DNA of 64,000 nt from Candidatus Aegiribacteria sp. Lineage in GTDB: Bacteria > Fermentibacterota > Fermentibacteria > Fermentibacterales > JCC-6. The stretch is from assembly GCA_030613065.1 (NCBI GenBank), contig JAUWMQ010000003.1, positions 499-64,498 on the forward strand. Direction: 5' to 3'. Made by a program: the position numbers and the translations under genes. Shown here piece by piece: positions 2,368 to 42,782 of this stretch. The notes beneath the pieces were generated by a model. It did no database searches. It was not told the DNA's origin and saw only the letters and a list, made by a program, of their open reading frames with translations. Position 1 is the stretch's first letter; each line of letters opens with the position of its first letter.

Positions 2368-3483
2368 CTACTCCTTGGTCTGTCGCCGGCTCTTTTCCAC
2401 AAGCTGCTCGATGCCGGTCAGGGTCTGTTTGTTTGCAGACCCTTCAATGGCCTTCACAGCAATGTCCTGTACTTTCCCGTATGCATTTTCCAACCGGGTG
2501 TTAATCCCGGCGAGTTGTTTGGTCTGTTCCGCAACAACGCTTTCGAGGGATTCAATTTTCGTCTGTAGTACGTTTACCTTTCCTTCAGCCTCTTTTTTAA
2601 GGAACGCTTCATTTCTCTTTGCTTCCTCATTCAGCCTATCCGCTGTCTCCTTGACGGTTTTGGTGATGTGGATTTCAAGTTCTTCTGGAAAAGCAGCCAC
2701 TTTTTTCTCAAGGTCTTCCATGTGTGTTTCCATTTCTGCAACCCTGGTTTCTCGATCCTGCAGTTCTTTCTCCTTTTCTTTAACGCTTTTCTCAAAGGTT
2801 TCCTTTTGAAGGGACATCTTTTTTTCCAGTTTCTCCATTTCATCCGTCAATTTGTTCTTGGTCAGCTCCTGCTCACGCTTTGAATTATAGTCAAACTCGT
2901 CCTTTTGTCGTTGTTGCAGCTTATTTTCCTCGGTGTCCCTATCCTTGACGGACTCCTGGTGAGTATGTTTTTCCTTGTCCCACAGGGTGCGAGTTAATTG
3001 AATCTCATCCTCCAAATGTTTCTTTTTGGTACTCATTTCATCATCATACTCGGCTATTTTCCGGGACATTTCAGTTTCGTACTCCAGCTTTTTCTGGTTA
3101 TGGGCTTCAATCAATGCCGCCAGGGCATGGGCGGACCGTTCGATTTCAAAGATCTCCTTCAGCTCATTATCTTTAATGACAATGGCCTCCTGTATCTTCT
3201 TGTACTTCTCCGTCTCTACCTCAAGTTTCTCGGAAATCCGGGTCAGTGATTTGCCCATCTCCATTTTTAAATCGCTGATTTTTGTCAGCACGCTCTCCTC
3301 CACGAGAGCATCGGCCACGCCCACAACTTCCGCCGCCTTTTTCTCCTCAAGTATTTTCTCCGGTTTTAGCTCGCTTTTGGCTTTATCCTCCAACTGCCTG
3401 ACCAGATCGTTATACGCTTCTATAATTTCTTTTTTAGTATTGGACATTGAAACATCTGATTCAGTCTCTTTTATGACAACCAT
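2368..3483 (-). CDS. E/K-rich coiled-coil protein, function unknown
   Basis: 371-aa ORF with a GAGAGG Shine-Dalgarno 6 nt upstream of ATG 3483. The whole length is heptad-like and E/K/L/T-rich. Convergent with the TPR gene. Confidence 0.6.
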   Translation of the reverse strand: MVVIKETESDVSMSNTKKEIIEAYNDLVRQLEDKAKSELKPEKILEEKKAAEVVGVADALVEESVLTKISDLKMEMGKSLTRISEKLEVETEKYKKIQEAIVIKDNELKEIFEIERSAHALAALIEAHNQKKLEYETEMSRKIAEYDDEMSTKKKHLEDEIQLTRTLWDKEKHTHQESVKDRDTEENKLQQRQKDEFDYNSKREQELTKNKLTDEMEKLEKKMSLQKETFEKSVKEKEKELQDRETRVAEMETHMEDLEKKVAAFPEELEIHITKTVKETADRLNEEAKRNEAFLKKEAEGKVNVLQTKIESLESVVAEQTKQLAGINTRLENAYGKVQDIAVKAIEGSANKQTLTGIEQLVEKSRRQTKE

Positions 3484-4873: not shown

Positions 4874-5404
4874 ATGGAGAAGAAACGTAAATTCATACTC
4901 ATCATCGCGGTCGCGGGAATGATAGGTACATTCCTGCCCTGGGCAAGCATTTCCGGGTTTGTTACGGTAAGTGGTACTCAGGGTGACGGATGGATCACAC
5001 TCGCCCTGTTTGCAATCGGTGGTGCTATTGCTTTCTTCAGCGGGGAAAAGACAGAAGCTATCAAGAAGAAGATCTCGACTGCTGTCTGGGTTACTGCCGC
5101 AATAGCAGCCATAATTGCTTTAATCAATCTTTTCAAATTGTCTCATGGCTTTAGCGCCGGCTTCGGTCTATGGCTCGTAATTATCGCCGGTCTCGCGCAG
5201 GTGTTTGTTACACTGTTCTTCAAGGGCGAAGGCGGCTGGGACATTCCCAAATCGGTAGCTGACGTTAAAGCAGCTGCCAGAATTCCTTCAGCAAAAGAGG
5301 AAGCCGCTCCTGCCGCACCAGCTGCTCCTGCAGCACCTGAGGCTCCAGTTGCGCCAGAAACATCCGAAGCTCCTCCAGCAGAGGAAGAGGAAGTTAAGGA
5401 ATAA
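4874..5404 (+). CDS. Polytopic membrane protein with a Pro/Ala/Glu-rich C-terminal tail
   Basis: ATG 4874 is preceded by an AGGTGG Shine-Dalgarno (the ORF track starts at GTG 4865). About 4 hydrophobic helices, then a PAAPAAPAAPEAPVAPE low-complexity tail. Confidence 0.55.
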   Translation: MEKKRKFILIIAVAGMIGTFLPWASISGFVTVSGTQGDGWITLALFAIGGAIAFFSGEKTEAIKKKISTAVWVTAAIAAIIALINLFKLSHGFSAGFGLWLVIIAGLAQVFVTLFFKGEGGWDIPKSVADVKAAARIPSAKEEAAPAAPAAPAAPEAPVAPETSEAPPAEEEEVKE

Positions 5405-28527: not shown

Positions 28528-28591
28528 TTGATAATATTAGCGGATATTGAATAGAATCAGGATTCATAAGCAAGATACCTGATATCGTTGA
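28528..28591 (+). repeat. Left copy of a ~60-bp diverged direct repeat flanking the secreted-protein gene
   Basis: A hand alignment to 29432-29492 gives about 45/55 identical positions: TTGATAATATTAGCGGATATTGAATAGAATCAGGATTCATAAGCAAGATACC... Confidence 0.6.
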
Positions 28592-29431: not shown

Positions 29432-29492
29432 TTGATTATATTCCCGAATATTGAACAGAATAACAATTCATCAGCAAGATACCCGAGGTTGA
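29432..29492 (+). repeat. Right copy of the ~60-bp diverged direct repeat
   Basis: TTGATTATATTCCCGAATATTGAACAGAATAACAATTCATCAGCAAGATACC..., aligned by hand to 28528-28591. Confidence 0.6.
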
Positions 29493-30231: not shown

Positions 30232-30974
30232 CTGATAACCCCGGTTACCATCCTGAACATACCATCGGGACCTTCAAAACCCGGTTCTGTTGCGTTCAGG
30301 ATAATGGCAACCAGGCTGTCCTCCAATACATAGACATCACTGATACGGTAGTTCGAAACGTACTGGTAACCGAATTTCGGTGATTCATCAAGAAGATGCA
30401 TTACTGTGTTACCGTTCGAATCTTTGAGCAGCACCTCAAGAAGAACAGGCGTCTCGAACATGGAAAGCCACTCTGGATGTGAGTCAGGCATATCCTTGTG
30501 GTTAATAACACGAAGGCTGTATTCCGGTCCGCTCCACATCAGTGAACCCACCCATGTAACGAATGAAACCATTTCAGGATCTACGCTTCTATCGGTCAGA
30601 GGATGGCAGATGCAGTGAACACCCTCGTTCTCCGGTGAAATACTCAGGCTGTCCAGAAAGGAATCGGCAGAATCGAGAACGATTTCTCCGGCCGGATTCA
30701 TGGAGTTTTCATAGCACATTTCAACACCCTCACTGTACATCATAGTTTCGGTCCATTGTACTTCAAATTTCCTGATTACACTGTTATCAGAGATTGACAT
30801 AACCACTATTTCAGCACCCGGGAATCCACTTCCGTCCTCGATCCAGTATTGTGAAAGCGCGGCGTATCTTCCATCATCGGAAAAGCCGAGGAACTCAACT
30901 GAAGCCAGAAAGGCGGCACCTGCCGCGGCGGTTGCGAGGAAAAGGAACAGAATAGTGAGTACGGAAGATTTCAT
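30225..30974 (-). CDS. Secreted protein (DUF2259-like from memory, unverified)
   Basis: Signal peptide 'VLTILFLFLATAAAGAA', then 'GFSDDGRYAALSQYWIEDGSGFPGAEI'. The first ~75 codons are duplicated at 32896-33119. Confidence 0.55.
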   Translation of the reverse strand: MKSSVLTILFLFLATAAAGAAFLASVEFLGFSDDGRYAALSQYWIEDGSGFPGAEIVVMSISDNSVIRKFEVQWTETMMYSEGVEMCYENSMNPAGEIVLDSADSFLDSLSISPENEGVHCICHPLTDRSVDPEMVSFVTWVGSLMWSGPEYSLRVINHKDMPDSHPEWLSMFETPVLLEVLLKDSNGNTVMHLLDESPKFGYQYVSNYRISDVYVLEDSLVAIILNATEPGFEGPDGMFRMVTGVISH

Positions 30975-31154
30975 ATTACTCCTTTATCGCAATGTTTGAT
31001 CAGAACTGTGAACATCCCTTTCATGAGTGTATAAATAGTATAGTTAATAGGCTGTGGAAGTGAAAATTCCAGGAATATTTCTCAGGGACGGTGCAAAGTG
31101 ATTAAATCGATGAATCCATTTACTGGTAAAACCATCCGATCATGGGCGGGAAAC
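30751..31154 (+). repeat. Copy A of a 404-bp direct repeat (5' end of the secreted-protein gene, divergent promoter region, first 19 codons of the ALDH gene)
   Basis: Aligned by hand to 32896-33300, with about 20 differences including 1 indel (~95% identity). Confidence 0.9.
31098..31154 (+). pseudogene. Orphan 5' fragment of the aldehyde dehydrogenase gene (19 codons) inside repeat copy A
   Basis: 'VIKSMNPFTGKTIRSWAGN' versus the intact 'MLKSINPFTGKTIRSWAGN' at 33244. The reading frame continues into unrelated sequence up to the stop at 31277. Confidence 0.75.
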
Positions 31155-31295
31155 AGGCGCTCATCTCGAAATGGTGATGTATCCGGAGCATCTCAATACT
31201 TCTGCGAGATACGCCGTTCAACACAGGGCTTCAGCATTCACTACCGGGCAGTCATCAAGACTGACGATGCACAGTGAATCTCATGAGCGTCTTTC

Positions 31296-31820
31296 TCACG
31301 GGAGTGCATGATCGTGAGCAGATGGAGTCGTGATATCCGATGGAAGGTTTTCGGGTAAACTGCCCGGTGGCTGATTTGGCCCGATGTCTGTTTCTACGAC
31401 GCTCTCTTCTAATACAAAGACTGTATCACCGAAAGAGTATTCAAGTGTGTATGAATGAGGTGCTGTGAGAGTGTAAGTTATGGCAGGATCATCATATCCC
31501 AGGAACTCCTGCTCTGTTGCAGGAAGTGCTCCAAACTGCAATTCGTAGTTTTTAGCCATTTGTGAGAGAGCGTCGAGCTGACCGTTGAACTGCTGGGTTA
31601 CCTCCTGAGGAATGATCGGTTCTGTGATCTCAGCTTCACCGGAAAACAGGAACTGCACAGCAAGTACAATAACAAGAACTACTGATGCTCCTGCAAGCAG
31701 GTATCCGGGAGGTACCTTTTTCTTCTCTTCCTTTTTCCTGTGTAATTGTTTTTCCTTCCTGCTCAGCGCTTTTTCAGCTTCATCAAAATACCCATTTTCA
31801 GTGGTGTCAGAATTGCTCAT
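31296..31820 (-). CDS. Single-pass membrane protein, function unknown (downstream of the pilin gene)
   Basis: ATG 31820 has an AGGAGG Shine-Dalgarno (the ORF-track start at 31868 lacks one). Lys-rich N-terminus, one TM helix 'LLAGASVVLVIVLAVQFLF', and an extracytoplasmic C-terminal domain. Confidence 0.45.
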   Translation of the reverse strand: MSNSDTTENGYFDEAEKALSRKEKQLHRKKEEKKKVPPGYLLAGASVVLVIVLAVQFLFSGEAEITEPIIPQEVTQQFNGQLDALSQMAKNYELQFGALPATEQEFLGYDDPAITYTLTAPHSYTLEYSFGDTVFVLEESVVETDIGPNQPPGSLPENLPSDITTPSAHDHALP

Positions 31821-31898
31821 TGGAGACCTCCTTTTACCCGTATTACACTGTCCGCAAGTGTTGATCAATGTCTTGAGAACCTCATTCCAGACAACGCT

Positions 31899-32318
31899 TT
31901 ATTCAGGTGTCCAGCCAAGCTCCCAGGTGGCACTGCCATCCCAGAAGTACCCGTGCTGGGGGAAAACATAGAAACAGACTGAGTAATAATAGGAATATGT
32001 AGTGCCGCCCACGGTGTATATATATCCATATACCCAGTACTTCCCAGCTGTTGAGGAACTCGAGCCGCTTGCAGTTGGGCAACGCATGCTAGATGCGTTT
32101 GCCATCACGCAGTCAAGGCTTTCGATGTCAGTCGGATATGTGTTTCTTTCCGCGAAGTATATGTTCATCCCTGATGCAAGGTTTCGCATGTTTGATCTGC
32201 ACGCGGATTTCTGGGAATCAGTCTTGATATCTCCGAATTTTGGAATGGCTATTGCGGATATTATTCCTATGATTACGACAACGATCATAAGTTCTATCAG
32301 AGTAAATCCACGTTTCAT
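31899..32318 (-). CDS. Type IV pilin / pseudopilin with prepilin N-terminal methylation motif and a very aromatic C-terminal region
   Basis: 'MKRGFTLIELMIVVVIIGIISAIAIPKF' (G|FTLIE cleavage/methylation site). GGGAGG Shine-Dalgarno upstream. The last ~48 aa contain about 10 Y, 4 W and 3 F. Confidence 0.8.
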   Translation of the reverse strand: MKRGFTLIELMIVVVIIGIISAIAIPKFGDIKTDSQKSACRSNMRNLASGMNIYFAERNTYPTDIESLDCVMANASSMRCPTASGSSSSTAGKYWVYGYIYTVGGTTYSYYYSVCFYVFPQHGYFWDGSATWELGWTPE

Positions 32319-32407
32319 GATCGAACACCTCCCTTAATAAACTATATCCCGTTAGTGTTTACCTGTAATCTACTGTAAGAACATACTACATTCACAGAAG
32401 TATCAAA

Positions 32408-32895
32408 TCAGACATCGAAGTTCCTGGCAAGGGTGAGGTGAAAGTGTTCACCTTTGTAGACCACACTCTTTGAGTACTGATTGAAGCTCATCCTCTCAAG
32501 GGAAAATGGAGCCCTTGAGATATATTCGCTGAGAGTCTTACGACCATCGGCATCACAGGCTTTTATGGGCTTGCCGCAGTGAACGCTGAAACCGCTGTGC
32601 TTCCAGGAGTTCATGTTCTCCACCAGTTTCTCTGAGATCATGTCCTCATCGAGAAGCATCTTGAAGACAAGACCGGCAAAGACTCTTTCAATACCATGTA
32701 TGTCAGCGGAATCAAGATCTGGCATACTATGAATATTGCCATCTCTGTCCCAGCAGACATCCGTTACAAGACAATGGACGTGAGGGTTCCAGCTGGCCAT
32801 GCCTCCGAAGGTCTGGACCAGTACACCACCAGGGAAAACATCATCCATATCAAGTGCTTCATGAACAAACACTGTCAATGAGTTCCATGTTTTCT
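32408..32895 (-). pseudogene. IS91-family (HUH/Y2 rolling-circle) transposase fragment, truncated at both ends
   Basis: 'VQTFGGMASWNPHVHCLVTD' (HUH-type HxH motif) and 'YISRAPFSLERMSF...VVYKGEH' (Y2_Tnp region). The N-terminal Zn-binding part and the C-terminal third are missing. Its 5' end abuts repeat copy B. Confidence 0.6.
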
Positions 32896-33119
32896 GTCCA
32901 TTGTACTTCAAATTTCCTGATTACACTGTTATCAGAGATTGACATAACCACTATTTCAGCGCCCGGGAATCCACTTCCGTCCTCGATCCAGTATTGTGAA
33001 AGCGCGGCGTATCTTCCATCATCGGAAAAGCCGAGGAACTCAACTGAAGCCAGAAAGGCGGCACCTGCCGCGGCGGTTGCGAGCAGAAGGAACAGAATAG
33101 TGAGTACGGAAGGTTTCAT
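32896..33119 (-). pseudogene. Orphan 5' fragment (~75 codons) of the 30225-30974 secreted-protein gene inside repeat copy B
   Basis: 'MKPSVLTILFLLLATAAAGAAFLASVEFLGFSDDGRYAALSQYWIEDGSGFPGAEIVVMSISDNSVIRKFEVQWTE' is near-identical to the N-terminus of the intact gene, then diverges at the repeat boundary. Confidence 0.8.
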
Positions 33120-33300
33120 AATACTCCTTAATCGCAATGCTTGATCAAAACCGTGAACATCCCTTTCATGAGTGTATAATATAGTATAGTTAATAGGCTG
33201 TGGAAGTGAAAATCCCAGGAATATTTCTCAGGGAAGGTGAAAAGTGCTTAAATCGATAAATCCATTTACGGGTAAAACCATCCGATCATGGGCTGGAAAC
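32896..33300 (+). repeat. Copy B of the 404-bp direct repeat
   Basis: See 30751-31154. 405 bp, ~95% identical. Confidence 0.9.
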
Positions 33301-34623
33301 ACTCCTGAAGAAGTCGAGAAAACCATTGAGAAGGCAGACAGAGCTTTCAGAATCTGGCGCGATACCAAGCTGGATAAACGCGCAGAGAAGCTGAGGAATC
33401 TTGCTTATCTGCTTGACTCAGGGAAGCACCAGCTTGCAGTGGAGATGGCTTCAGAGATGGGCAAACCTGTCACCCAGGGACAGTCCGAAATTGAAAAATG
33501 CGCGTGGGTCTGCAGGTACTACGCGCAATACGGCTCCCGATTAATTGCTAAGAAAAGCAGGAAAACAGACGCAGATAAGTGCTACGTCTGTTATCAGCCC
33601 CTCGGAGTCATATTCGCAGTGATGCCCTGGAATTTCCCGTTCTGGCAGTTTTTCAGATTTGCGGCACCTGCCGTGATGGCTGGAAATACCTTCGTTCTCA
33701 AGCATTCCCCGAACGTTACCGGGTGTGCCCTGAGCATCCCGGAGCTGTTCAGGGATGCTGGCTTTCTGGATGGTCTGGCCGGGCTTATTCTCGTTCCTGA
33801 GGAAAAGGTTCCCGAAGTGTCCAGCATAGTAATTGCCGATCACAGGATAAAGGCAGTTACGCTAACCGGGAGCGGAACAGCAGGCGGGGCAGTCGCATCG
33901 GGGGCGGGATCGGCTATAAAGAAGTGTGTGCTGGAACTAGGAGGGAGTGACCCTGCGATAATTCTGGAAGATGCGGATCTTAAACTTGCAGCCGCTGAAT
34001 CGGTGTTTTCCAGGCTGATCAATGCAGGGCAGAACTGCATTGCCTCCAAGAGGTTCATTGTGATTGAGAGTGTTTATAGCGAGTTTCTTGAACTGCTTGT
34101 GAAGGAGATGCAGATCACCAGGATGGGCGACCCTATGGATATGAAAGTAGACCTGGGACCAATGGCCAGGTACGATCTCCGTGATAACCTTCATCGACAG
34201 GTTATGCAGAGCGTTGATCTTGGAGCTGAGCTGATCATGGGAGGCAACATACCGGAGCATCATGGAGCTTTCTATCCGCCTACAGTACTCACGGGCTGCA
34301 GAAAGGGAATGCCTGTTTTTGATGAAGAAACCTTCGGTCCTGTAGCTGCAGTCTGTTCGGTAAGGAATGAGGGAGAAGCCGTTAAGCTTGCCAACGATAC
34401 GTCTTACGGCCTCGGAGCGTCAGTCTACACACGTGATGTTCGCCGGGGAGAGAAGATAGCTCTTGAGATGAATGCAGGAGCCTGCTTCGTGAACACATTT
34501 GTCCGGTCAGATCCCAGGCTGCCTTTCGGTGGAATCGGTCGTTCAGGTTTCGGCAGAGAGCTGTCTCGCAGCGGGATGCTTGAATTTACAAACTGTAAAA
34601 CCGTTTACATCATGAATGGATAA
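33244..34623 (+). CDS. NAD(P)+-dependent aldehyde dehydrogenase (succinate-semialdehyde dehydrogenase-like)
   Basis: 'LELGGSDP', catalytic Cys in 'GQNCIASKR', and 'EETFGPV'. 459 aa, GTG start. Confidence 0.9.
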   Translation: MLKSINPFTGKTIRSWAGNTPEEVEKTIEKADRAFRIWRDTKLDKRAEKLRNLAYLLDSGKHQLAVEMASEMGKPVTQGQSEIEKCAWVCRYYAQYGSRLIAKKSRKTDADKCYVCYQPLGVIFAVMPWNFPFWQFFRFAAPAVMAGNTFVLKHSPNVTGCALSIPELFRDAGFLDGLAGLILVPEEKVPEVSSIVIADHRIKAVTLTGSGTAGGAVASGAGSAIKKCVLELGGSDPAIILEDADLKLAAAESVFSRLINAGQNCIASKRFIVIESVYSEFLELLVKEMQITRMGDPMDMKVDLGPMARYDLRDNLHRQVMQSVDLGAELIMGGNIPEHHGAFYPPTVLTGCRKGMPVFDEETFGPVAAVCSVRNEGEAVKLANDTSYGLGASVYTRDVRRGEKIALEMNAGACFVNTFVRSDPRLPFGGIGRSGFGRELSRSGMLEFTNCKTVYIMNG

Positions 34624-35895: not shown

Positions 35896-36771
35896 ATGAA
35901 AAACAATGGTAAATTCCAGAATGGATTGATTCCTCCGGCTCTCAGTATCCTGTTTACCGCGGGTTTTTTGCCGGTGGGAACGGTTTCGGCTTCGGATCAG
36001 CTCAGCAACCATATCGGTACAGTTGATGATAATGGCTCAAGTTCAGCTCTTTCAGTATCCCTCTTAACGAGAACTTCTGCTCTTTGGAGCAACCCCCAGT
36101 GGCAGGAATTCAAGAGGATCTGGAAGAAGCTGGACAGTATTGCCCCGGCTGACGGTGATTACAGCTCCAACCAGCTTGATTATGAAAAGCTAAACAAGAT
36201 CAGGATTGAGCTGGACAACAGTTACGTTGAATTAATGAGAATCGCTGACGAAATAACTATTGACTCTCTCGATATCGTACTCCTCCACAGGCTGGCATCC
36301 GACAGGCTTGATATTCTTGCCTACGGTTCGGCACTACCCATGACAAGGATGATGCTGCCACCCATTTCTGATCAGACTGATGATCTCCTTCCACAGATCG
36401 AAGCCAGGATTGACACAGTTGTTCGCCTGAGGGAGGATGGTCTGATCTCATCCGGGGAAATGATAACAACCTTCAGCAACCTGAGATCTTCCATCGACTT
36501 GTATTATCTTCTGGAAACTATCAACAGTGAAACCGGTTATTCAGGGGTGCTATGGACGGTTCGATGGCCAATGGAGGTTGATCGGATACAGCCGTACCTT
36601 GACAGTATTAAAACCTCTGTAATGGAAAGTCTCAGGAATGCAGGATCAGAGAATGAGGAAGGGTACAGCGTGATGCTTGAGGATCTGCGGAATATGGAGC
36701 AATCCATAAGCAATGTGCAGGACAGATTGCCTGCTCTGCACGATCTTCTCCTTGATCTTGAGCTTTTCTGA
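35896..36771 (+). CDS. Secreted all-helical protein, function unknown (no Cys)
   Basis: 291 aa with a signal-like N-terminus 'LIPPALSILFTAGFLPVGTVSA'. Its stop is 8 nt before the radical SAM start. Confidence 0.5.
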   Translation: MKNNGKFQNGLIPPALSILFTAGFLPVGTVSASDQLSNHIGTVDDNGSSSALSVSLLTRTSALWSNPQWQEFKRIWKKLDSIAPADGDYSSNQLDYEKLNKIRIELDNSYVELMRIADEITIDSLDIVLLHRLASDRLDILAYGSALPMTRMMLPPISDQTDDLLPQIEARIDTVVRLREDGLISSGEMITTFSNLRSSIDLYYLLETINSETGYSGVLWTVRWPMEVDRIQPYLDSIKTSVMESLRNAGSENEEGYSVMLEDLRNMEQSISNVQDRLPALHDLLLDLELF

Positions 36772-36778
36772 TAACTCG

Positions 36779-37747
36779 ATGAAAGGCCCCTTGTTCGTTT
36801 TCGAGATCACACCCCAATGTAACCTTGCCTGCACTTACTGCTACAATGTATGGAAGACTGATAGTGAACACTACCCCAGGGAACTCTCGCTGGACGAGAT
36901 TGAGAACCTCGCGGATTCAATTCAAGCTGCGCATCCGATTTCAGTTACCTTAACCGGCGGAGAACCTATTCTGAGAGATGATCTTCATGAGATCGTCAGT
37001 ATCCTTAGGAAGCGCGGAATTCTGGTTGGAATTGCAACCAATGGTATGCTTCTTGATCGGGATACAGCACATTCGCTGAAGGAAGCAGGTGCTTCATGGT
37101 TTGAAGTATCCGTCACTTCAGTTTCCGGAGAGAGATACACTGATCTGACGGGCACCGATGGGTTTGATGATGTAAAACGGGCTATGCTCGCTGTGAAATC
37201 CGCCGGTGCCAGGTTAACCATTTCACATATCATAACTTCACTGAATTACGGTGATGCAGGGCAGGTTGTTGACCTTGCTTACGCGTTCTCGGCGGATGCG
37301 ACAGCCCTCAACCGCTTCGTACCCGGCGGAACTGGCCTTGAGAACAGGCATCTTCTGCCCACCCTCGAACAGCTTGATTCCGCCCTGAAAAGCGCCGGTG
37401 AAAGATCACTCATGTCCCCCGGAATGACAGTATACGCCGCCATTCCAGTAGAGGATTGTCTGCTGCATCACAGTGATTACCCCGGTGTATCGTTCGGATC
37501 CTGCATATGCGGGGCGGGAAAATGGGCGATAAGCCCCTCAGGAGATCTGAGAGTATGCGAACAGAGTTCGCACATCATCGGAAGCCTCCTGGAAAGATCT
37601 TTTGAGGAACTGTCCCGTTCTGAATTCGTTGAGGAATTCCGGTGCAGCAACAGGAGCTCAGACTGTGAATCGTGCAGTTCCATGACCGTATGCGGAGGAG
37701 GGTGCAGATTTCTCAGGGAAATACCCACATGCGGAGTTATTCCCTGA
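36779..37747 (+). CDS. Radical SAM enzyme with a C-terminal SPASM domain
   Basis: 'CNLACTYCYN' (CxxxCxxC) near the N-terminus and 'CESCSSMTVCGGGC' (CX2CX5CX3C SPASM motif). ATG 36779; the ORF-track start at 36713 overlaps the upstream gene. Confidence 0.85.
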   Translation: MKGPLFVFEITPQCNLACTYCYNVWKTDSEHYPRELSLDEIENLADSIQAAHPISVTLTGGEPILRDDLHEIVSILRKRGILVGIATNGMLLDRDTAHSLKEAGASWFEVSVTSVSGERYTDLTGTDGFDDVKRAMLAVKSAGARLTISHIITSLNYGDAGQVVDLAYAFSADATALNRFVPGGTGLENRHLLPTLEQLDSALKSAGERSLMSPGMTVYAAIPVEDCLLHHSDYPGVSFGSCICGAGKWAISPSGDLRVCEQSSHIIGSLLERSFEELSRSEFVEEFRCSNRSSDCESCSSMTVCGGGCRFLREIPTCGVIP

Positions 37748-37799
37748 CATGTTCAAGCCCCTTTGAGACAAGGTCTTTCACATGGTCATCATCCAACCT
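37676..37799 (+). repeat. Copy 1 of a 124-bp direct repeat (3' end of the radical SAM gene plus 3' end of arsR)
   Basis: Identical to 41186-41309 except for one T/C difference (37751 vs 41261), which is synonymous in the arsR frame. Confidence 0.95.
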
Positions 37800-37853
37800 T
37801 GAGGCTTTCCTGAAATAGATGCATATTTAGAGTAAATACCATGAAATTCCAAC

Positions 37854-37881
37854 TTGACATGTTCGATTTTCATGGTATTAT
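37854..37881 (+). promoter_or_regulatory. Near-consensus sigma70 promoter positioned for a leaderless transcript of the ATPase gene
   Basis: TTGACA (37854-37859), N16, TATTAT (37876-37881). ATG 37888 lies 7 nt after the -10 and has no Shine-Dalgarno. The promoter sits inside the inverted repeat TACCATGAAA (37837-37846) / TTTCATGGTA (37869-37878). Confidence 0.6.
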
Positions 37882-37887
37882 CATCAC

Positions 37888-39036
37888 ATGGTACAGCGGG
37901 ATTGTCTTCTGTCTGAGTTGAATCGAGCCCTTGGAAGGAGCCGGATAGTACTTCTTTCCGGTCCCAGACAGAGCGGCAAGACCACTATAGCCAGAGAGCT
38001 TGTCTCACTGGAGTCGGTGAACTACTTTGACCTTGAGAACCCTCTTGATTTTAACAGATTATCAGAACCATTCACTGCTCTTAACGATCTGCGTGGCCTG
38101 GTTGTTATAGACGAGGTGCAAAGGTCACCTGATCTTTTCCCGGTACTTAGAGTGCTTGCCGACAGGCCTGACATTCCGGCGACTTTCCTTATTCTCGGCA
38201 GCGCATCCGGCCAGTTACTGAGGCAGAGCTCAGAGAGCCTTGCCGGAAGGCTTGAGATACAGAACATCACTGGATTCACTCTTGATGAGGTGGGAGCTGA
38301 AAAACATAAACAGCTCTGGCTGAGAGGTAGCTTCCCCAGATCTTTCCTGGCTGACAGTGAGGAGGACAGCTCAGCATGGAGGCGAAACTTCATGCAGACG
38401 CTGCTCGAGCGGGACTTCCCTCAATGGGGAGTGAGAGTACCTGCAACAGCACTTGGGCGTTTCTGGAGAATGCTGGCTCATTATCACGGGCAGTACTGGA
38501 ATGCCGCAGAGCCTGCCAGAGTTCTCGGAGTAAGTCAGACTACCGTGAGAAGACATCTCGACATAATGACTGATGCATTCATGATAAGGCAGTTGCAGCC
38601 CTGGCTTGCCAATCTGGCTAAAAGACAGGTAAAGTCACCTAAGATATACATCAGAGACAGCGGTCTTCTCCATCAGCTTCTTGGAATTGAGACGGAAAAA
38701 GGAGCTCTAACCAATCCGAAAACTGGAGCATCCTGGGAAGGCTTTGTGATAGAGCAGGTCATTGCATCCACCTGGCACGACAGCGTACACTTCTGGGCTT
38801 CACATCAGGGAGCTGAGATTGATCTGATACTGACAAGAGGAGATGATCTGTTCGGTGTTGAATGTAAACTCTCAGATGCACCGAAGCTGACTCTCTCCAT
38901 GAAAACCACCTTGGATCAACTGGGGCTCTCCAGGATTGCTGTCATCTACCCAGGCATGAAAAGATACCAGCTGTATCCTGGAATAGAGGCTGTTCCTGTC
39001 AGCTCTCTTGAAGAAAGAGAAAGTCTCTTCCGCTAA
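37888..39036 (+). CDS. AAA+ ATPase (AAA_14) with a DUF4143 C-terminal PD-(D/E)xK-like nuclease module
   Basis: Walker A 'GPRQSGKTT', Walker B 'VVIDEVQ', and a C-terminal 'GAEIDLIL...FGVECKLS' (D...ExK) pattern. Confidence 0.85.
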   Translation: MVQRDCLLSELNRALGRSRIVLLSGPRQSGKTTIARELVSLESVNYFDLENPLDFNRLSEPFTALNDLRGLVVIDEVQRSPDLFPVLRVLADRPDIPATFLILGSASGQLLRQSSESLAGRLEIQNITGFTLDEVGAEKHKQLWLRGSFPRSFLADSEEDSSAWRRNFMQTLLERDFPQWGVRVPATALGRFWRMLAHYHGQYWNAAEPARVLGVSQTTVRRHLDIMTDAFMIRQLQPWLANLAKRQVKSPKIYIRDSGLLHQLLGIETEKGALTNPKTGASWEGFVIEQVIASTWHDSVHFWASHQGAEIDLILTRGDDLFGVECKLSDAPKLTLSMKTTLDQLGLSRIAVIYPGMKRYQLYPGIEAVPVSSLEERESLFR

Positions 39037-39095
39037 CCGCTTCTCCCCAGTTTGGTCATATTCGGCAAAACAAGTTCTACTGAAAGGAATCCACC

Positions 39096-41135
39096 ATGAG
39101 AAACGAATACCCGATAACGAAAAAATGCGATGCTTCTGATGTGTTCTTCGGAGAGGTTATTGCCGATCCGTACAGGTGGCTGGAAGATGACACTTCACCT
39201 GAGGTCGCTTCATGGGTTAAGGCTCAGAATCAGGCTACTTTCTCTCATCTGGATTCCATTTCCCTGCGGCAGATCATCCGGGACCGGATGGCTCAACTCT
39301 GGAATCATGCCAGATACGGCGCTCCTTTCAGGCGCGGTGAATGGACATACTTCTTTCTGAATAGCGGGCTGCAGAGCCAGGCTGTCCTGTACAGGGAGAA
39401 GGATGGTGGGGAACCTGAAGTGTTTCTTGATCCCAACACCTTTTCATCTGACGGAACAACATCCCTTTCCGGCATAGGCTTTTCCCCTGATGGTTCCTTT
39501 GCCTGTTACAGCGTGTCCGAAGGTGGAGCGGACTGGCAGACCGTTAGAGTCATCGCCTGTGATGCTCCCGAAGAAGTATTGGAGACAGTTTCCGATGTGA
39601 AGTTTTCGGCACTGAGCTGGAGGGGTAGTGAGGGTTTCTACTACAGCAGCTATCGGAAACCGGAATTCGGCACGGTTCTTTCTGCGAAGACAACTGAACA
39701 CAGACTGATGTTCCACAGACTGGGGTCACACCAGGATTCCGATGTACTTGTCTTCGGAGGTTCAGAGACTCCACGCAGGTATGTGAACGGTGAAGTGACA
39801 GAGGACGGCAGATGGTTGTGGATAACCGCTTCTGTTTCCACAACAGGTGACGAGCTTTATGTGCGTGACCTTTCCACCGCTGATTCTTCTCTGGTGCAGC
39901 TCGCTTCGGGTTTCGAGAGAGAGTACAGGGTGGTAGACAGCCTTGGAGATAATCTCTTCGTGGAAACCAACCTGGATGCGCCCAACAACCGTCTGGTTCT
40001 GGTTGATATGTCCTCTCCCTCCTCTTCATGGAAAGATGTGATTCCCGAGAGGGGTGAAGTTCTCTCGGTTACCCATGGCGGAGGATACCTGTTCGCCACA
40101 TATCTGCAGGACGCGTTATCAGTTGTGGAGCAGGTTGACCATTCCGGGAACGTGGTACGGGTGGTTGAACTCCCGGGCACCGGTACCTCGCAGGTCTTCA
40201 CCGGACTCCGGGATGATACTGATGTCTACTACAGCTTCACAAGCTACACCCATCCCCGGGAGATATGGGCTCTGGATGTTGTTTCAGGAGAGTCCTCCAG
40301 GTTCAGGGCTTCAGGGGTGGAGTTCGATCCATCAATGTATGTGTCTGATCAGGTCTTTTTTCAATCGGCTGACGGAACCACCGTACCGATGATGATAACT
40401 CGCAGGAAGGATGTAGTCCCCGCCGGCAACAATCCGTGCCTGCTCTACGGCTACGGCGGATTCAATGCGAAGATCACCCCGGCCTTCAGTGTATCTGCGG
40501 TTGCGTGGATGGAACAGGGCGGAGTGTATGCTGTGCCCAACATTCGCGGTGGAGGTGAGTACGGAGAGGCATGGCATCTGGCCGGAACGAAAACTTCCAA
40601 ACAGAATGTCTTCAACGATTTCATTGCAGCGGCTGAATACCTGTGCACTTCAGGCTGGACAAACCCATCGAGACTTACTGTTTCAGGCGGCAGTAACGGC
40701 GGTCTTCTTGTGGGAGCGGTGATAACACAGAGACCGAAACTGTTCGGTGCAGCACTTCCTGCAGTAGGAGTGCTGGACATGCTCCGCTATCACCGGTTCA
40801 CAGCCGGTGCAGGCTGGGCATACGACTACGGTACAGCAGAGGACAGTGAAGAGATGTTCAGGTACCTGCTGGGATACTCACCGCTGCACAATGTGAAACA
40901 CGGCACATCCTACCCGGCGGTCATGGTGACCACCGGAGATCATGATGACCGGGTTGTGCCTGCTCACTCCTTCAAGTTCGCAGCGGCCCTGCAGGCAGCT
41001 CAGGAAGGGCAGGCTCCGGTTCTCATCCGGGTTGATGTGAACGCCGGACATGGAGCGGGAAAACCCATGGGCATGCTGATAGACTGCGAGGCGGACAGGC
41101 TCTCTTTCGCTCTGCACCATCTCAGACAGCTCTGA
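39096..41135 (+). CDS. Prolyl oligopeptidase (S9A family)
   Basis: N-terminus 'DPYRWLEDD', a beta-propeller region, catalytic Ser 'GGSNGGLLVGA', and Asp/His in 'GDHDDRV' and 'GHGAGKP'. 679 aa. Confidence 0.93.
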   Translation: MRNEYPITKKCDASDVFFGEVIADPYRWLEDDTSPEVASWVKAQNQATFSHLDSISLRQIIRDRMAQLWNHARYGAPFRRGEWTYFFLNSGLQSQAVLYREKDGGEPEVFLDPNTFSSDGTTSLSGIGFSPDGSFACYSVSEGGADWQTVRVIACDAPEEVLETVSDVKFSALSWRGSEGFYYSSYRKPEFGTVLSAKTTEHRLMFHRLGSHQDSDVLVFGGSETPRRYVNGEVTEDGRWLWITASVSTTGDELYVRDLSTADSSLVQLASGFEREYRVVDSLGDNLFVETNLDAPNNRLVLVDMSSPSSSWKDVIPERGEVLSVTHGGGYLFATYLQDALSVVEQVDHSGNVVRVVELPGTGTSQVFTGLRDDTDVYYSFTSYTHPREIWALDVVSGESSRFRASGVEFDPSMYVSDQVFFQSADGTTVPMMITRRKDVVPAGNNPCLLYGYGGFNAKITPAFSVSAVAWMEQGGVYAVPNIRGGGEYGEAWHLAGTKTSKQNVFNDFIAAAEYLCTSGWTNPSRLTVSGGSNGGLLVGAVITQRPKLFGAALPAVGVLDMLRYHRFTAGAGWAYDYGTAEDSEEMFRYLLGYSPLHNVKHGTSYPAVMVTTGDHDDRVVPAHSFKFAAALQAAQEGQAPVLIRVDVNAGHGAGKPMGMLIDCEADRLSFALHHLRQL

Positions 41136-41185
41136 AGGGAAGACATCTTTCCGATCAAGGGTTTCATGAAGATACATCGTGAGAG

Positions 41186-41309
41186 AGTTCCATGACCGTA
41201 TGCGGAGGAGGGTGCAGATTTCTCAGGGAAATACCCACATGCGGAGTTATTCCCTGACATGCTCAAGCCCCTTTGAGACAAGGTCTTTCACATGGTCATC
41301 ATCCAACCT
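41186..41309 (+). repeat. Copy 2 of the 124-bp direct repeat
   Basis: See 37676-37799. Here it carries the functional 3' end of arsR and an orphan 3' fragment of the radical SAM gene. Confidence 0.95.
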
Positions 41310-41555
41310 GTAAAATACGTGCCTTCCTTTTTTTCGGCTCCTGACAAGTCTGGCTGTGCGCAGGGATCTGAGCTGGTGGGAAACTGCAGAAACACTTACA
41401 TCCGTCTTCTCCGCCAGTTCACAAACGCATTTCTCACCGGAGAACATTGACATAAGAAGAAGCAGCCTGGTCGGATCAGCCATCTGATGAAATAGTTCAG
41501 CCAGAACTTCAACTTCTTCGGTGTGAACCTGCAGTTCTTCTCCTGTACCGGTCAT
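41247..41555 (-). CDS. ArsR/SmtB-family metalloregulator
   Basis: 'FSGEKCVCELAEKTDVSVSAVSHQLRSLRTARLVRSRKKGRHVFYRL' shows the CVC metal site plus a winged HTH. Immediately downstream of the efflux permease in the same operon. Confidence 0.9.
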   Translation of the reverse strand: MTGTGEELQVHTEEVEVLAELFHQMADPTRLLLLMSMFSGEKCVCELAEKTDVSVSAVSHQLRSLRTARLVRSRKKGRHVFYRLDDDHVKDLVSKGLEHVRE

Positions 41556-42782
41556 CTATTCCTCCTTTACATCGTAGCCAAGTTCCCTGATTGCCTTAAC
41601 AGCATCTATACTGCTAAATCCCGGGCTTCCATCCAGAGCTATCTCGACGGTACCCTTCCCGGACGAGGTGATTACACCAAGTATTCCCGGCGATTCCTTA
41701 AGAGCCCTGCTGACTTTCGTCTCGCAATTCGAGCACTTCATACCGTCAACATTGAACTTCATTGTCTTACCTCTTCTAGAGGATTTCAGCTTGAGATCAA
41801 GAAAACCTTTGAATGCGAACCATACCGTCCCAGCGATCAGGAGTACTCCGGCAGCAATACTGAGTAAACCTGTAATCGAATCCATACCGTGTCCGGCATG
41901 GTAAGCCCGGGATACTGAAACATTGAGCGAGTTAAGGATTCCTCCGGCAGCAAGACTGATAATTATAACGGTCAGTATGTAAACCAGGAAAACACTCGTT
42001 CCAAGGGTTTTGCGAACCGCGCCCATTGTCGCGGCGTTCGTAGCCGGACCGGCCATGAGAAATACCAGAGCGCTGCCCACGGGGAATCCGGCGTATATGA
42101 GACCGGCCGCGATAGGTACCGATGCGACAGAGCAGACATAGAGAGGAATTCCGATTGCAAGCGCCGCCAGCAGTCCCAGCGGACCTTCGAGAATCGTATA
42201 TTGTGACAGCTGCCCGGGTTCAAGGAAAGTGGTGATCAGCGCGGATAACACTATTCCGAAGACAAGCCATCCGTAGATATCCCTGAAAAGGCCATTGAAA
42301 GAGTAGTTCCATATCCTCAGGGGCAGCGGACCGGTTTCAATATCTGTGCACACCGGAGAGGTTCCCTGATCGTTCTTACCGTTGCCTATTTTATCGACAA
42401 TTGTTCCTCCAAGTAGACCCGCAACGAAGGCCGCGATTACCTTTGCAAGTGCAACCGGCCATCCTAGAATCGCCCATGTTACTGATATGGAATCGACTCC
42501 CGTCTGGGGAGTGCTTATGAGGAACGATGTGACAGCTCCCCTGGATGCTCCGTCCCTTCGAAGGCCCAGTGCCGCAGGCAGTACTCCGCAGGAGCAGAGC
42601 GGAAGGGGAACACCCACCAGAGCTGCCTTTGCGCTGCTTTTGAATCCCGGTTTCCCCAGGTGGGATAAAATCCTGTCTTTCTTTACGAAAACATGCAGGA
42701 GTCCGGCCAGAAGAAGTCCCAGAATGAGCGATGGCGCAAGAGCTGTAATTGTACTCCATAACGCATTAATAAATTCAATCAT
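41556..42782 (-). CDS. Metal efflux permease (DUF318/ArsP-like, SO_0444-type) with a C-terminal HMA domain
   Basis: Multi-TM with 'LPLCSCGV', and a C-terminal 'MKFNVDGMKCSNCETKV' (GMxCxxC heavy-metal-associated domain). Confidence 0.8.
   Translation of the reverse strand: MIEFINALWSTITALAPSLILGLLLAGLLHVFVKKDRILSHLGKPGFKSSAKAALVGVPLPLCSCGVLPAALGLRRDGASRGAVTSFLISTPQTGVDSISVTWAILGWPVALAKVIAAFVAGLLGGTIVDKIGNGKNDQGTSPVCTDIETGPLPLRIWNYSFNGLFRDIYGWLVFGIVLSALITTFLEPGQLSQYTILEGPLGLLAALAIGIPLYVCSVASVPIAAGLIYAGFPVGSALVFLMAGPATNAATMGAVRKTLGTSVFLVYILTVIIISLAAGGILNSLNVSVSRAYHAGHGMDSITGLLSIAAGVLLIAGTVWFAFKGFLDLKLKSSRRGKTMKFNVDGMKCSNCETKVSRALKESPGILGVITSSGKGTVEIALDGSPGFSSIDAVKAIRELGYDVKEE

Follow-up and report, generated by a model that had tools for sequence, protein, structure and literature searches.

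A foreign 3.4-kb segment between two 124-nt copies of its target site at overlapping convergent genes of a cold-seep Fermentibacteria bacterium

The stretch analysed here, a 64-kb window of contig JAUWMQ010000003.1 (hereafter the window), comes from an uncultured Fermentibacteria/Aegiribacteria-like bacterium of a cold seep. Between a radical SAM/SPASM gene (hereafter rSAM) and a convergent arsR gene it holds a 3.4-kb insert with two genes, one encoding an ATPase with a nuclease-type domain and the other a prolyl oligopeptidase (POP); these gene identities, proposed in an earlier sequence-only reading of the window, agree with the Pfam assignments (Table 1). The insert is bracketed by a direct repeat, which a repeat search of the window resolves into two copies of 124 nt each, 99% identical and 3,510 nt apart, and an alignment of the two copies shows that the borders are sharp at both sides. 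The near-identical duplication that the sequence-only reading had described is thus present at the length stated there. The whole window holds just one other long direct-repeat region, so the 124-nt repeat is not a chance match.

Table 1 Features of the rSAM/arsR locus and its insert, in window coordinates
Feature	Coordinates	Strand	Basis
Radical SAM/SPASM gene (rSAM), left neighbour	36713..37747	+	Pfam Radical_SAM, Fer4_12, SPASM
Repeat copy 1 (R1): functional rSAM 3′ end and orphan arsR tail	37676..37799	.	Repeat search, alignment, translation
Orphan arsR 3′ fragment, 20 codons and stop	37737..37799	-	Translation RLDDDHVKDLVSKGLEHVRE and stop, identical to the arsR C-terminus
Insert, 3,386 bp	37800..41185	+	Missing in the empty-site strain; deviant tetranucleotide profile
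Palindromic operator TACCATGAAA ... TTTCATGGTA around the promoter (putative)	about 37837..37881	+	Inverted-repeat search, promoter match
AAA_14/DUF4143 ATPase with PD-(D/E)XK nuclease-type C-terminal domain	37888..39036	+	Pfam AAA_14 5.5e-23, DUF4143 6.2e-43
Prolyl oligopeptidase (S9A), passenger gene	39096..41135	+	Pfam Peptidase_S9_N 8.8e-116, Peptidase_S9 9.5e-62
Repeat copy 2 (R2): orphan rSAM tail and functional arsR 3′ end	41186..41309	.	Repeat search, alignment, translation
ArsR/SmtB metalloregulator gene (arsR), right neighbour	41247..41555	-	Pfam HTH_5; NCBIfam HTH_metalloreg 91.8 bits, cut-off 55
SO_0444-type Cu/Zn efflux permease with HMA domain, same operon as arsR	41556..42782	-	Pfam ArsP_1 and HMA; NCBIfam CuZnOut_SO0444 302 bits, cut-off 300

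The two copies, R1 on the left and R2 on the right, each complete one neighbour and strand a piece of the other. R1 supplies the final 72 nt of rSAM, from after the second Cys of its CX2CX5CX3C motif onward, and leaves an orphan arsR tail, whereas R2 completes arsR and leaves an orphan rSAM tail that reads SSMTVCGGGCRFLREIPTCGVIP and then stop, with an in-frame stop ahead of the tail. The translations bear out this reciprocal arrangement, which had been read from the sequence in the same terms, down to the beginning of the rSAM part inside the cysteine motif. The arsR part of the repeat, put at about 55 nt in that reading, measures 63 nt including the stop. The reading had further supposed that the convergent genes overlapped in the ancestor through their stop codons; in the single-copy state the coding sequences do share 11 nt (37737-37747), whereas the stop codons are separate, at a distance of 5 nt. 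The single mismatch between the copies (T at 37752, C at 41262) changes GAA to GAG in arsR, both of which encode Glu, and it is indeed synonymous in that gene. The rSAM gene, whose likely true start is at position 36779, encodes a C-terminus ...REIPTCGVIP that is 5 aa longer than those of its relatives (...IPVR, ...IPFR and ...IPTR). Exact-protein look-ups with arsR and with two rSAM versions returned no recorded match, and no Rfam families were found in 37400-41700.

Because the locus is defined by a repeat, its assembly has to be considered. The window is part of a metagenome-assembled genome and is fully contained only in its probable source run, X1, for which we used an independent Logan assembly built at k=31, with SRR12623517 as the origin of the contig that bears the ATPase gene; our comparisons with the other public runs likewise use k=31 contigs. 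At each of the four junctions the X1 contigs break off after exactly 30 nt of the repeat, and the repeat itself forms a separate 124-nt contig with a depth of 10.7, where the flanks and the insert have 5.3-7.9 (7.25 and 5.28 for pieces of the insert; 7.91, 5.48 and 7.64 for the flanks). The depth of the repeat fits two copies per genome, with the words that span the single-nucleotide polymorphism (SNP) divided between the variants, and the equal depths of insert and flanks fit an insert that is single-copy and integrated. The same k=31 graph, in which two paths enter the repeat node and two leave it, allows both threadings, so that an empty-site chromosome and a separate 3.5-kb circle, or two strains, could have been merged into one contig. 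We regard such an artefact as very improbable: the insert and its flanks have similar depths in X1, a depth of 10.7 is the expectation for two copies with split SNP words, and in another run, X5, pieces of the ATPase and POP genes that are 95-98.6% identical occur at the depth of the flanks. Moreover, as 47 nt separate the SNP from the right border, any final k above about 48 phases it with real words, and the deposited contig ties the T to the insert and the C to arsR.

The sequence-only reading had proposed to look for an rSAM|arsR site without the insert in related genomes, and such a site is present. Run X7, a sediment metagenome from a separate study, contains a strain that is 94-99.6% identical to the window on the flanks, and one of its contigs connects 37626-37752 with 41263-41406, skipping 3,510 nt, the length of the insert plus one repeat copy. 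Over 37770-40550 there is no depth in this run. This contig represents the empty site, rSAM-repeat-arsR with the repeat present once, and gives direct evidence that the insert entered the overlapping gene ends with duplication of the target. Its base at the SNP position is T, as in R1, and the identity of the X7 strain to the window is 87-97% near the insert, compared with 99.6% at 28.5-29.8 kb.

More distant relatives, at 78-86% nucleotide identity, all lack the ATPase-POP pair. In one of them (L001) rSAM and arsR are separated by a 39-nt spacer, in two others (L003 and L004) a PMT_2 glycosyltransferase gene stands between them without flanking repeats, and in a fourth (L005) the interval is about 1.6 kb. 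With an empty site in a close strain and no pair in the distant relatives, the insertion is recent and strain-variable; a recent event had already been suggested from the sequence, and one mismatch per 124 nt together with the polymorphism between strains supports it. The rSAM/arsR interval is a variable slot among the relatives. By the longer rSAM C-terminus and a comparison of 37720-37747 with 11000-11065 of L001, the overlapping ends of the two genes are a young, lineage-specific fusion, in which a deletion would have taken the rSAM stop together with the spacer or the PMT_2 gene and joined rSAM to the arsR tail, giving it the ending TCGVIP in place of TR, VR or FR. Since the fusion is specific to this lineage, the 99%-identical duplication of the fused ends must have arisen inside the lineage as well.

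The DNA of the insert is foreign by composition. Its tetranucleotide profile lies at a distance of 0.265 from that of the remaining window, where the mean is 0.174 and the standard deviation 0.024 (z ~3.8), the largest value among 108 equally sized windows. Neither of its two genes contains a transposase, integrase or recombinase domain (Pfam, PADLOC and NCBIfam), no tyrosine or serine recombinase is found by Pfam between 33244 and 43688, and Pfam finds no Y2_Tnp domain in the insert. Terminal inverted repeats are also absent from the insert, in which the sole inverted repeat, at 37835-37879, is a palindrome at the promoter of the ATPase gene.

The second gene of the insert indicates where the segment came from. 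Its product matches the Aeromonas prolyl endopeptidase (PDB 3iuj) over the full length, with 830 bits, and contains the triad motifs GGSNGG, GDHDDRV and AGHGAG; judged by its sequence, it is an ordinary S9A enzyme with a beta-propeller N-terminus and an alpha/beta-hydrolase domain bearing a Ser-Asp-His triad, and is probably cytosolic. The closest relatives of this POP, at three metagenome loci (L015-L017), share 92% nucleotide identity with the window over 38950-41131. At these loci the final 26 codons of the same ATPase gene persist upstream of the POP gene, preceded by HEPN/nucleotidyltransferase pairs, and this remnant implies that the ATPase and POP genes were already neighbours in the donor lineage before the insertion. 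By this comparison the insert is a lifted piece of donor chromosome, not a designed cassette. In run X2, where a POP copy is 92% identical to that of the window, identity drops to about 81-82% in the genes that flank it in the resident relative; the POP is thus far closer than its surroundings, which argues for horizontal movement.

Several observations concern the surroundings of these closest relatives. Most of the ATPase gene has given way there to two HEPN/nucleotidyltransferase pairs (L015 228-2152 and 2398-2483; L016 3383-4726), and a second, distantly related DUF4143 ATPase of 448 aa lies downstream of the POP gene in the L015-L017 region. The POP of the closest relatives therefore sits in a fast-changing patch of defence and toxin-antitoxin genes.

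Within the insert the POP is a passenger, since it is absent beside other homologues of the ATPase: at none of 87 ATPase-homologue loci does a POP gene lie next to the ATPase, and POP homologues at 72-76% identity occur in unrelated contexts. The suggestion made from the sequence that ATPase and POP form a recurrent mobile unit is not supported by these counts, and we rejected a functional pairing of the two genes on the same 87 loci. Two further candidate readings of the POP end of the insert were set aside. Truncation of the POP by the insertion was rejected because the C-termini of homologues vary naturally past ...HHL and some homologues are also 679 aa long, and the 50-54 nt behind the POP gene are not a diverged rSAM fragment, as their in-frame translation is unrelated and BLAST gave no source for them.

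The first gene of the insert belongs to a widespread family. The ATPase matches the PADLOC candidate defence family PDC-S01 (PDLC04790) with 1.3e-82, and its AAA_14 and DUF4143 domains both exceed the Pfam gathering scores. The Walker A motif GPRQSGKT, the Walker B motif VIDEVQ and the D...ExK nuclease motif are intact, and G30-K31-T32-T33, D75-E76 and D312...E325-C326-K327 are invariant in 30 homologues. By profile and architecture the protein is a PDC-S01 member and hence a candidate phage-defence gene product. DUF4143 has been placed in the PD-(D/E)XK superfamily (PMC3424549), and PDC-S01 is reported to rank as the fourth commonest defence candidate of prokaryotes (PMC12988326); in E. coli B, a PDC-S01 representative from a cold seep failed to protect against T4, T5 or T7 (10.1101/2024.09.26.614923). 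The ATPase has no relative by sequence among solved structures, and a structure model of it has a predicted local distance difference test (pLDDT) score of 65.8, too poor for a meaningful fold search. Homologues are very numerous, running into thousands at a flat 66-70% identity over several phyla. Viral contigs contributed only 2 distant relatives, and the homologues on plasmids are at most 47% identical.

The sequence-only reading had credited the insert with a strong promoter of its own, and this holds. The ATPase gene is preceded by TTGACA-16-TATTAT with an upstream TG, matching 11 of 12 consensus positions and lying inside the palindrome, and the -10 box ends 6 nt ahead of the ATG, a spacing from which the mRNA is probably leaderless. 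The same promoter and palindrome stand ahead of 65 of 76 homologue genes from diverse metagenomes, allowing at most 2 mismatches per arm. The palindrome takes the form ACCATGAAAA-N17-20-TTTTCATGGTA, overlaps the extended -10 box and ends about 6-12 nt before the start codon (loci L018, L021 and L023 included), a placement that implies leaderless mRNAs for these genes too. Upstream of homologues that lie in unrelated contexts and whose proteins are just 69-70% identical, this operator/promoter region is 91-93% conserved. Downstream of the ATPase gene the motif is absent in the window and occurs at 4 of 67 homologue loci, with no enrichment. A conserved palindrome confined to the upstream side behaves as an operator, not as a transposon end, and the ATPase gene is probably autoregulated through it. 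In the literature searched we found no description of long flanking repeats or of a conserved palindromic operator for PDC-S01 genes.

Long flanking repeats recur around this gene family. Our survey covered 80 metagenome loci with ATPase homologues, of which we counted the non-redundant ones with at least 300 nt on both sides (n=53). Unique direct repeats of 45-196 nt (77-93% identical) lie within 600 nt on each side of the ATPase gene at 6 of these 53 loci, compared with 11 of 1,476 control windows, all of them from three loci (Fisher p = 1.2e-5); the control consists mostly of core genes, not of other recently acquired genes. Recently gained ATPase genes thus often carry a repeat footprint, and the enrichment does not imply that the ATPase is its cause. 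The repeats have sharp borders, share no sequence between ATPase loci and are made of adjacent host DNA: at L062 the 3′ end of an NtrC-like gene, at L077 the start of a downstream gene, at L042 a histidine-kinase fragment and at L026 the terminator behind a tRNA gene. At L062 the two 103-nt copies of the NtrC-like 3′ end (630-732 and 2981-3083) enclose a PIN toxin-antitoxin pair together with the ATPase gene, and a contig comparison gave noisy hints of variants without the ATPase or without the entire unit, which are too faint to be taken as empty sites. The L026 unit is 1.4 kb long, contains the ATPase gene only and follows directly on a tRNA gene, with 49-nt copies (43-91 and 1501-1549, 92% identical) of the tRNA terminator hairpin at its ends; its 1,668-nt contig contains no integrase.

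One apparent case was excluded from the survey. At L084 the sequences that seem to flank the ATPase (861-1032, 2409-2580, 1-344 and 4989-5144) are a multi-copy repeat with a depth of 300-435 against about 40. This repeat is a high-copy dispersed element, at about 8-10 times the surrounding depth, that includes the start of a small gene (MDRREMTKENKNSLQPMGIVQVRNIRN...).

A similar layout occurs a second time in the window, about 5 kb from the first. Two copies of a repeat with a core of about 405 nt (30723-31155 and 32868-33301, about 96% identical) bracket a 1.7-kb insert (31156-32867) that holds an unknown 190-aa gene, an N_methyl pilin-like gene and a fragment of a Y2_Tnp (IS91-type) gene at 32408-32911. 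The repeat spans a divergent promoter region and both gene starts, and the DUF2259 and aldehyde dehydrogenase neighbours are intact; L001 has one copy of it. A codon-position test on its two copies showed no significant bias, with third positions accounting for 5 of 8 coding differences. In the unrelated metagenomes X2, X3 and X7 the depth of contigs over 31984-32700 rises to 50-200 from about 5-15 elsewhere, so this stretch is either common to many organisms or multi-copy. A weaker direct repeat of 55 nt, 82% identical (28528-28582 and 29432-29486), lies around a 217-aa gene without a Pfam match and could represent an older, third event of this type. Since the 1.7-kb insert has no ATPase gene, an ATPase encoded in cis is not needed for a design of this sort.

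The counts around the ATPase family raise the question of whether the ATPase-nuclease is itself mobile, with PDC-S01-type genes promoting their own insertion, for example by staggered target cleavage that leaves long and variable duplications, and with the POP carried along. Besides the excess of flanking repeats (6 of 53 loci against 11 of 1,476 controls), this idea would account for repeats that are unshared between loci and hence target-derived, and it gains from the additional cases at the tRNA terminator of L026 and with the toxin-antitoxin passengers of L062. The flat 66-70% identity of thousands of homologues over several phyla, the operator and promoter that always accompany the gene, and the presence in one protein of an ATPase and a PD-(D/E)XK nuclease domain, the latter with invariant catalytic residues, point the same way. 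We nevertheless consider a self-inserting ATPase quite unlikely. The putative units have no conserved ends, with distances between repeat and gene that range from 12 to about 500 nt, the palindrome stands upstream of the gene only, and the same window has a repeat-flanked insert without an ATPase gene. The control of mostly core genes also tempers the enrichment, L084 proved to be a multi-copy repeat, and nothing in the scheme ensures that the gene itself is copied; we know of no mechanism for a self-inserting ATPase enzyme of this kind. The broader proposition that PDC-S01-type genes are self-contained mobile genes, equipped with a conserved operator and a leaderless promoter, whose insertions leave variable target duplications of about 45-200 bp and of which the window cassette would be a fresh example with a passenger, seems to us unlikely as well.

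The 124-nt repeats also contain gene 3′ ends, as is typical for integrase-borne islands, and the L026 unit adjoins a tRNA gene. These features could suggest that an integrase acting in trans placed the cassette as an integrase-less islet, similar to a cis-mobilizable element (CIME), with the 124-nt repeats as attL and attR; attachment (att) identity segments longer than 100 bp exist, for example in SLP1 of Streptomyces. Site-specific integration of this type is nonetheless extremely unlikely here. Neither the insert nor its immediate surroundings contain an integrase, and the repeat is a recent fusion confined to this lineage, not a conserved att site. The relatives with a PMT_2 gene at this position have no repeats around it, and the repeats differ at every other ATPase locus. 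That an att-like repeat is single in the X7 empty site is a feature common to every explanation considered here.

For the origin of the window locus we favour, with confidence about evenly balanced, a single event in which 3,386 bp of foreign DNA entered the rSAM/arsR overlap and general repair or replication duplicated the 124-bp target de novo, the product being kept because both genes stayed intact. In a recent ancestor, a stretch of foreign chromosome would have entered the 11-nt overlap between the convergent genes, either as a linear fragment captured at a staggered break and followed by fill-in, or through a replicative template switch into foreign DNA with a return to a point 124 nt upstream. 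The outcome would be a tandem duplication of 124 bp that has the foreign DNA at its join point, and in which both neighbours keep complete 3′ ends and two orphan gene tails lie beside the insert. Neither a site-specific nor a transpositional enzyme would be involved, and the layout would have survived by selection: a plain insertion into overlapping gene ends truncates one of the genes, which explains why only the repeat-flanked form is seen. The event would have added a self-contained PDC-S01-type ATPase-nuclease gene to the genome, along with the POP gene carried over as its neighbour in the donor. An order of events with the duplication first and the insertion later is unlikely, as both copies are complete and, among about 113 dispensable positions, only a single one would have suited the later insertion.

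Several points weigh against a de novo duplication. As candidate junction microhomology, judged from the window side, an ATCGTG hexamer stands to the left of both copies (p ~0.14) and a weak similarity to their right, and neither is better than in shuffled controls (p 0.14-0.15). The phasing of the SNP to the junctions rests on the deposited assembly, the Logan contigs being built at k=31. The enrichment of repeats around the ATPase family hints at a family-specific process that general repair does not need. Finally, the two copies at L062 differ at 10 sites, all of them synonymous third positions, although one copy is an orphan, and at L077 third codon positions account for 23 of 34 differences; these synonymous patterns fit alleles of a donor and a recipient better than the decay of a duplication made on the spot.

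The last point bears on an alternative in which the cassette arrived already joined to the 124-nt segment, as a circle or a one-ended fragment, and was incorporated by a RecA-type single crossover or by one-ended repair with end joining, so that the two repeat copies are the donor and recipient versions of one segment. The differences at L062 (10 of 10 synonymous despite the orphan copy) and L077 would then separate two alleles that had each evolved in a functional gene. In the window, too, the sole mismatch is synonymous and the orphan arsR copy has the base of the empty-site strain, and the identity between the window and X7 is lower near the insert than at 28.5-29.8 kb. On the strength of the L062 and L077 patterns we keep this homology-assisted import as an appreciable minority view, although it remains on the unlikely side. 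The donor would already have to join the cassette to the repeat, which only moves the origin of the first junction elsewhere, and as the fusion is young and lineage-specific and the copies are 99% identical, this donor would have to be a near-identical strain. Neither a circle junction nor a donor context was found by BLAST. A repeat-bearing circle, moreover, whether its crossover used RecA or an integrase, needs a genome in which the cassette already abuts the young local segment, so the first junction would still call for a de novo event.

Read as a de novo duplication at the point of entry, the locus is a clean natural case of gene gain at a place where a simple insertion would harm, with filled and empty sites among wild strains that are close relatives: through a long target duplication, foreign DNA can enter between overlapping genes and damage neither. 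If the association of long repeats with PDC-S01 genes holds in complete genomes, it would be the first mechanistic clue to the spread of an abundant, uncharacterised 'defence' gene, and, if true, it would raise the question of whether PDC-S01 genes act in defence, are selfish, or combine the two roles. The conserved operator provides a testable handle on the regulation of the ATPase gene.

Compared with known systems, the insert is neither an insertion sequence (IS) or transposon, nor an integrase-borne islet, nor an insertion sequence common region (ISCR) capture, by the features that define each. IS elements and transposons produce a short target duplication of fixed length (2-15 bp), in contrast to the 124 bp here and the 45-196 nt at other ATPase loci. 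Integrase islets and CIMEs resemble the locus in that their direct repeats hold the 3′ end of the target gene, which is restored after insertion; here, however, there is no integrase and no conserved att site, and the length and sequence of the repeat are specific to each locus. Complex class 1 integrons, with the order 3′ conserved segment (3′-CS), ISCR1, captured gene and second 3′-CS, also bracket a cassette with a long duplicated backbone segment, and they are thought to form by homologous re-integration of a circle. The window insert, by contrast, is without an IS91/ISCR transposase or oriIS, and a Y2_Tnp fragment occurs only in the neighbouring 1.7-kb insert.

Two further processes come closer to the window locus. 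Tandem duplications with inserts at the join point, attributed to fork stalling and template switching (FoSTeS) or microhomology-mediated break-induced replication (MMBIR), share with it the order repeat-insert-repeat, sharp borders and the absence of element ends, but they are known mainly from eukaryotes and from amplification studies in E. coli and have short inserts from the same genome, where the window has 3.4 kb of foreign DNA. In Campbell-type insertion-duplication and homology-facilitated illegitimate recombination, the incoming DNA already carries a segment of the target, and no such donor was found here; as in the window, copies of the target of about 100 nt or longer flank the foreign DNA, the insert encodes no recombinase, and the genes can stay intact. 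The ATPase gene itself has its counterpart in PDC-S01, whose members share its AAA_14 and DUF4143 build and, like it, are solitary genes.

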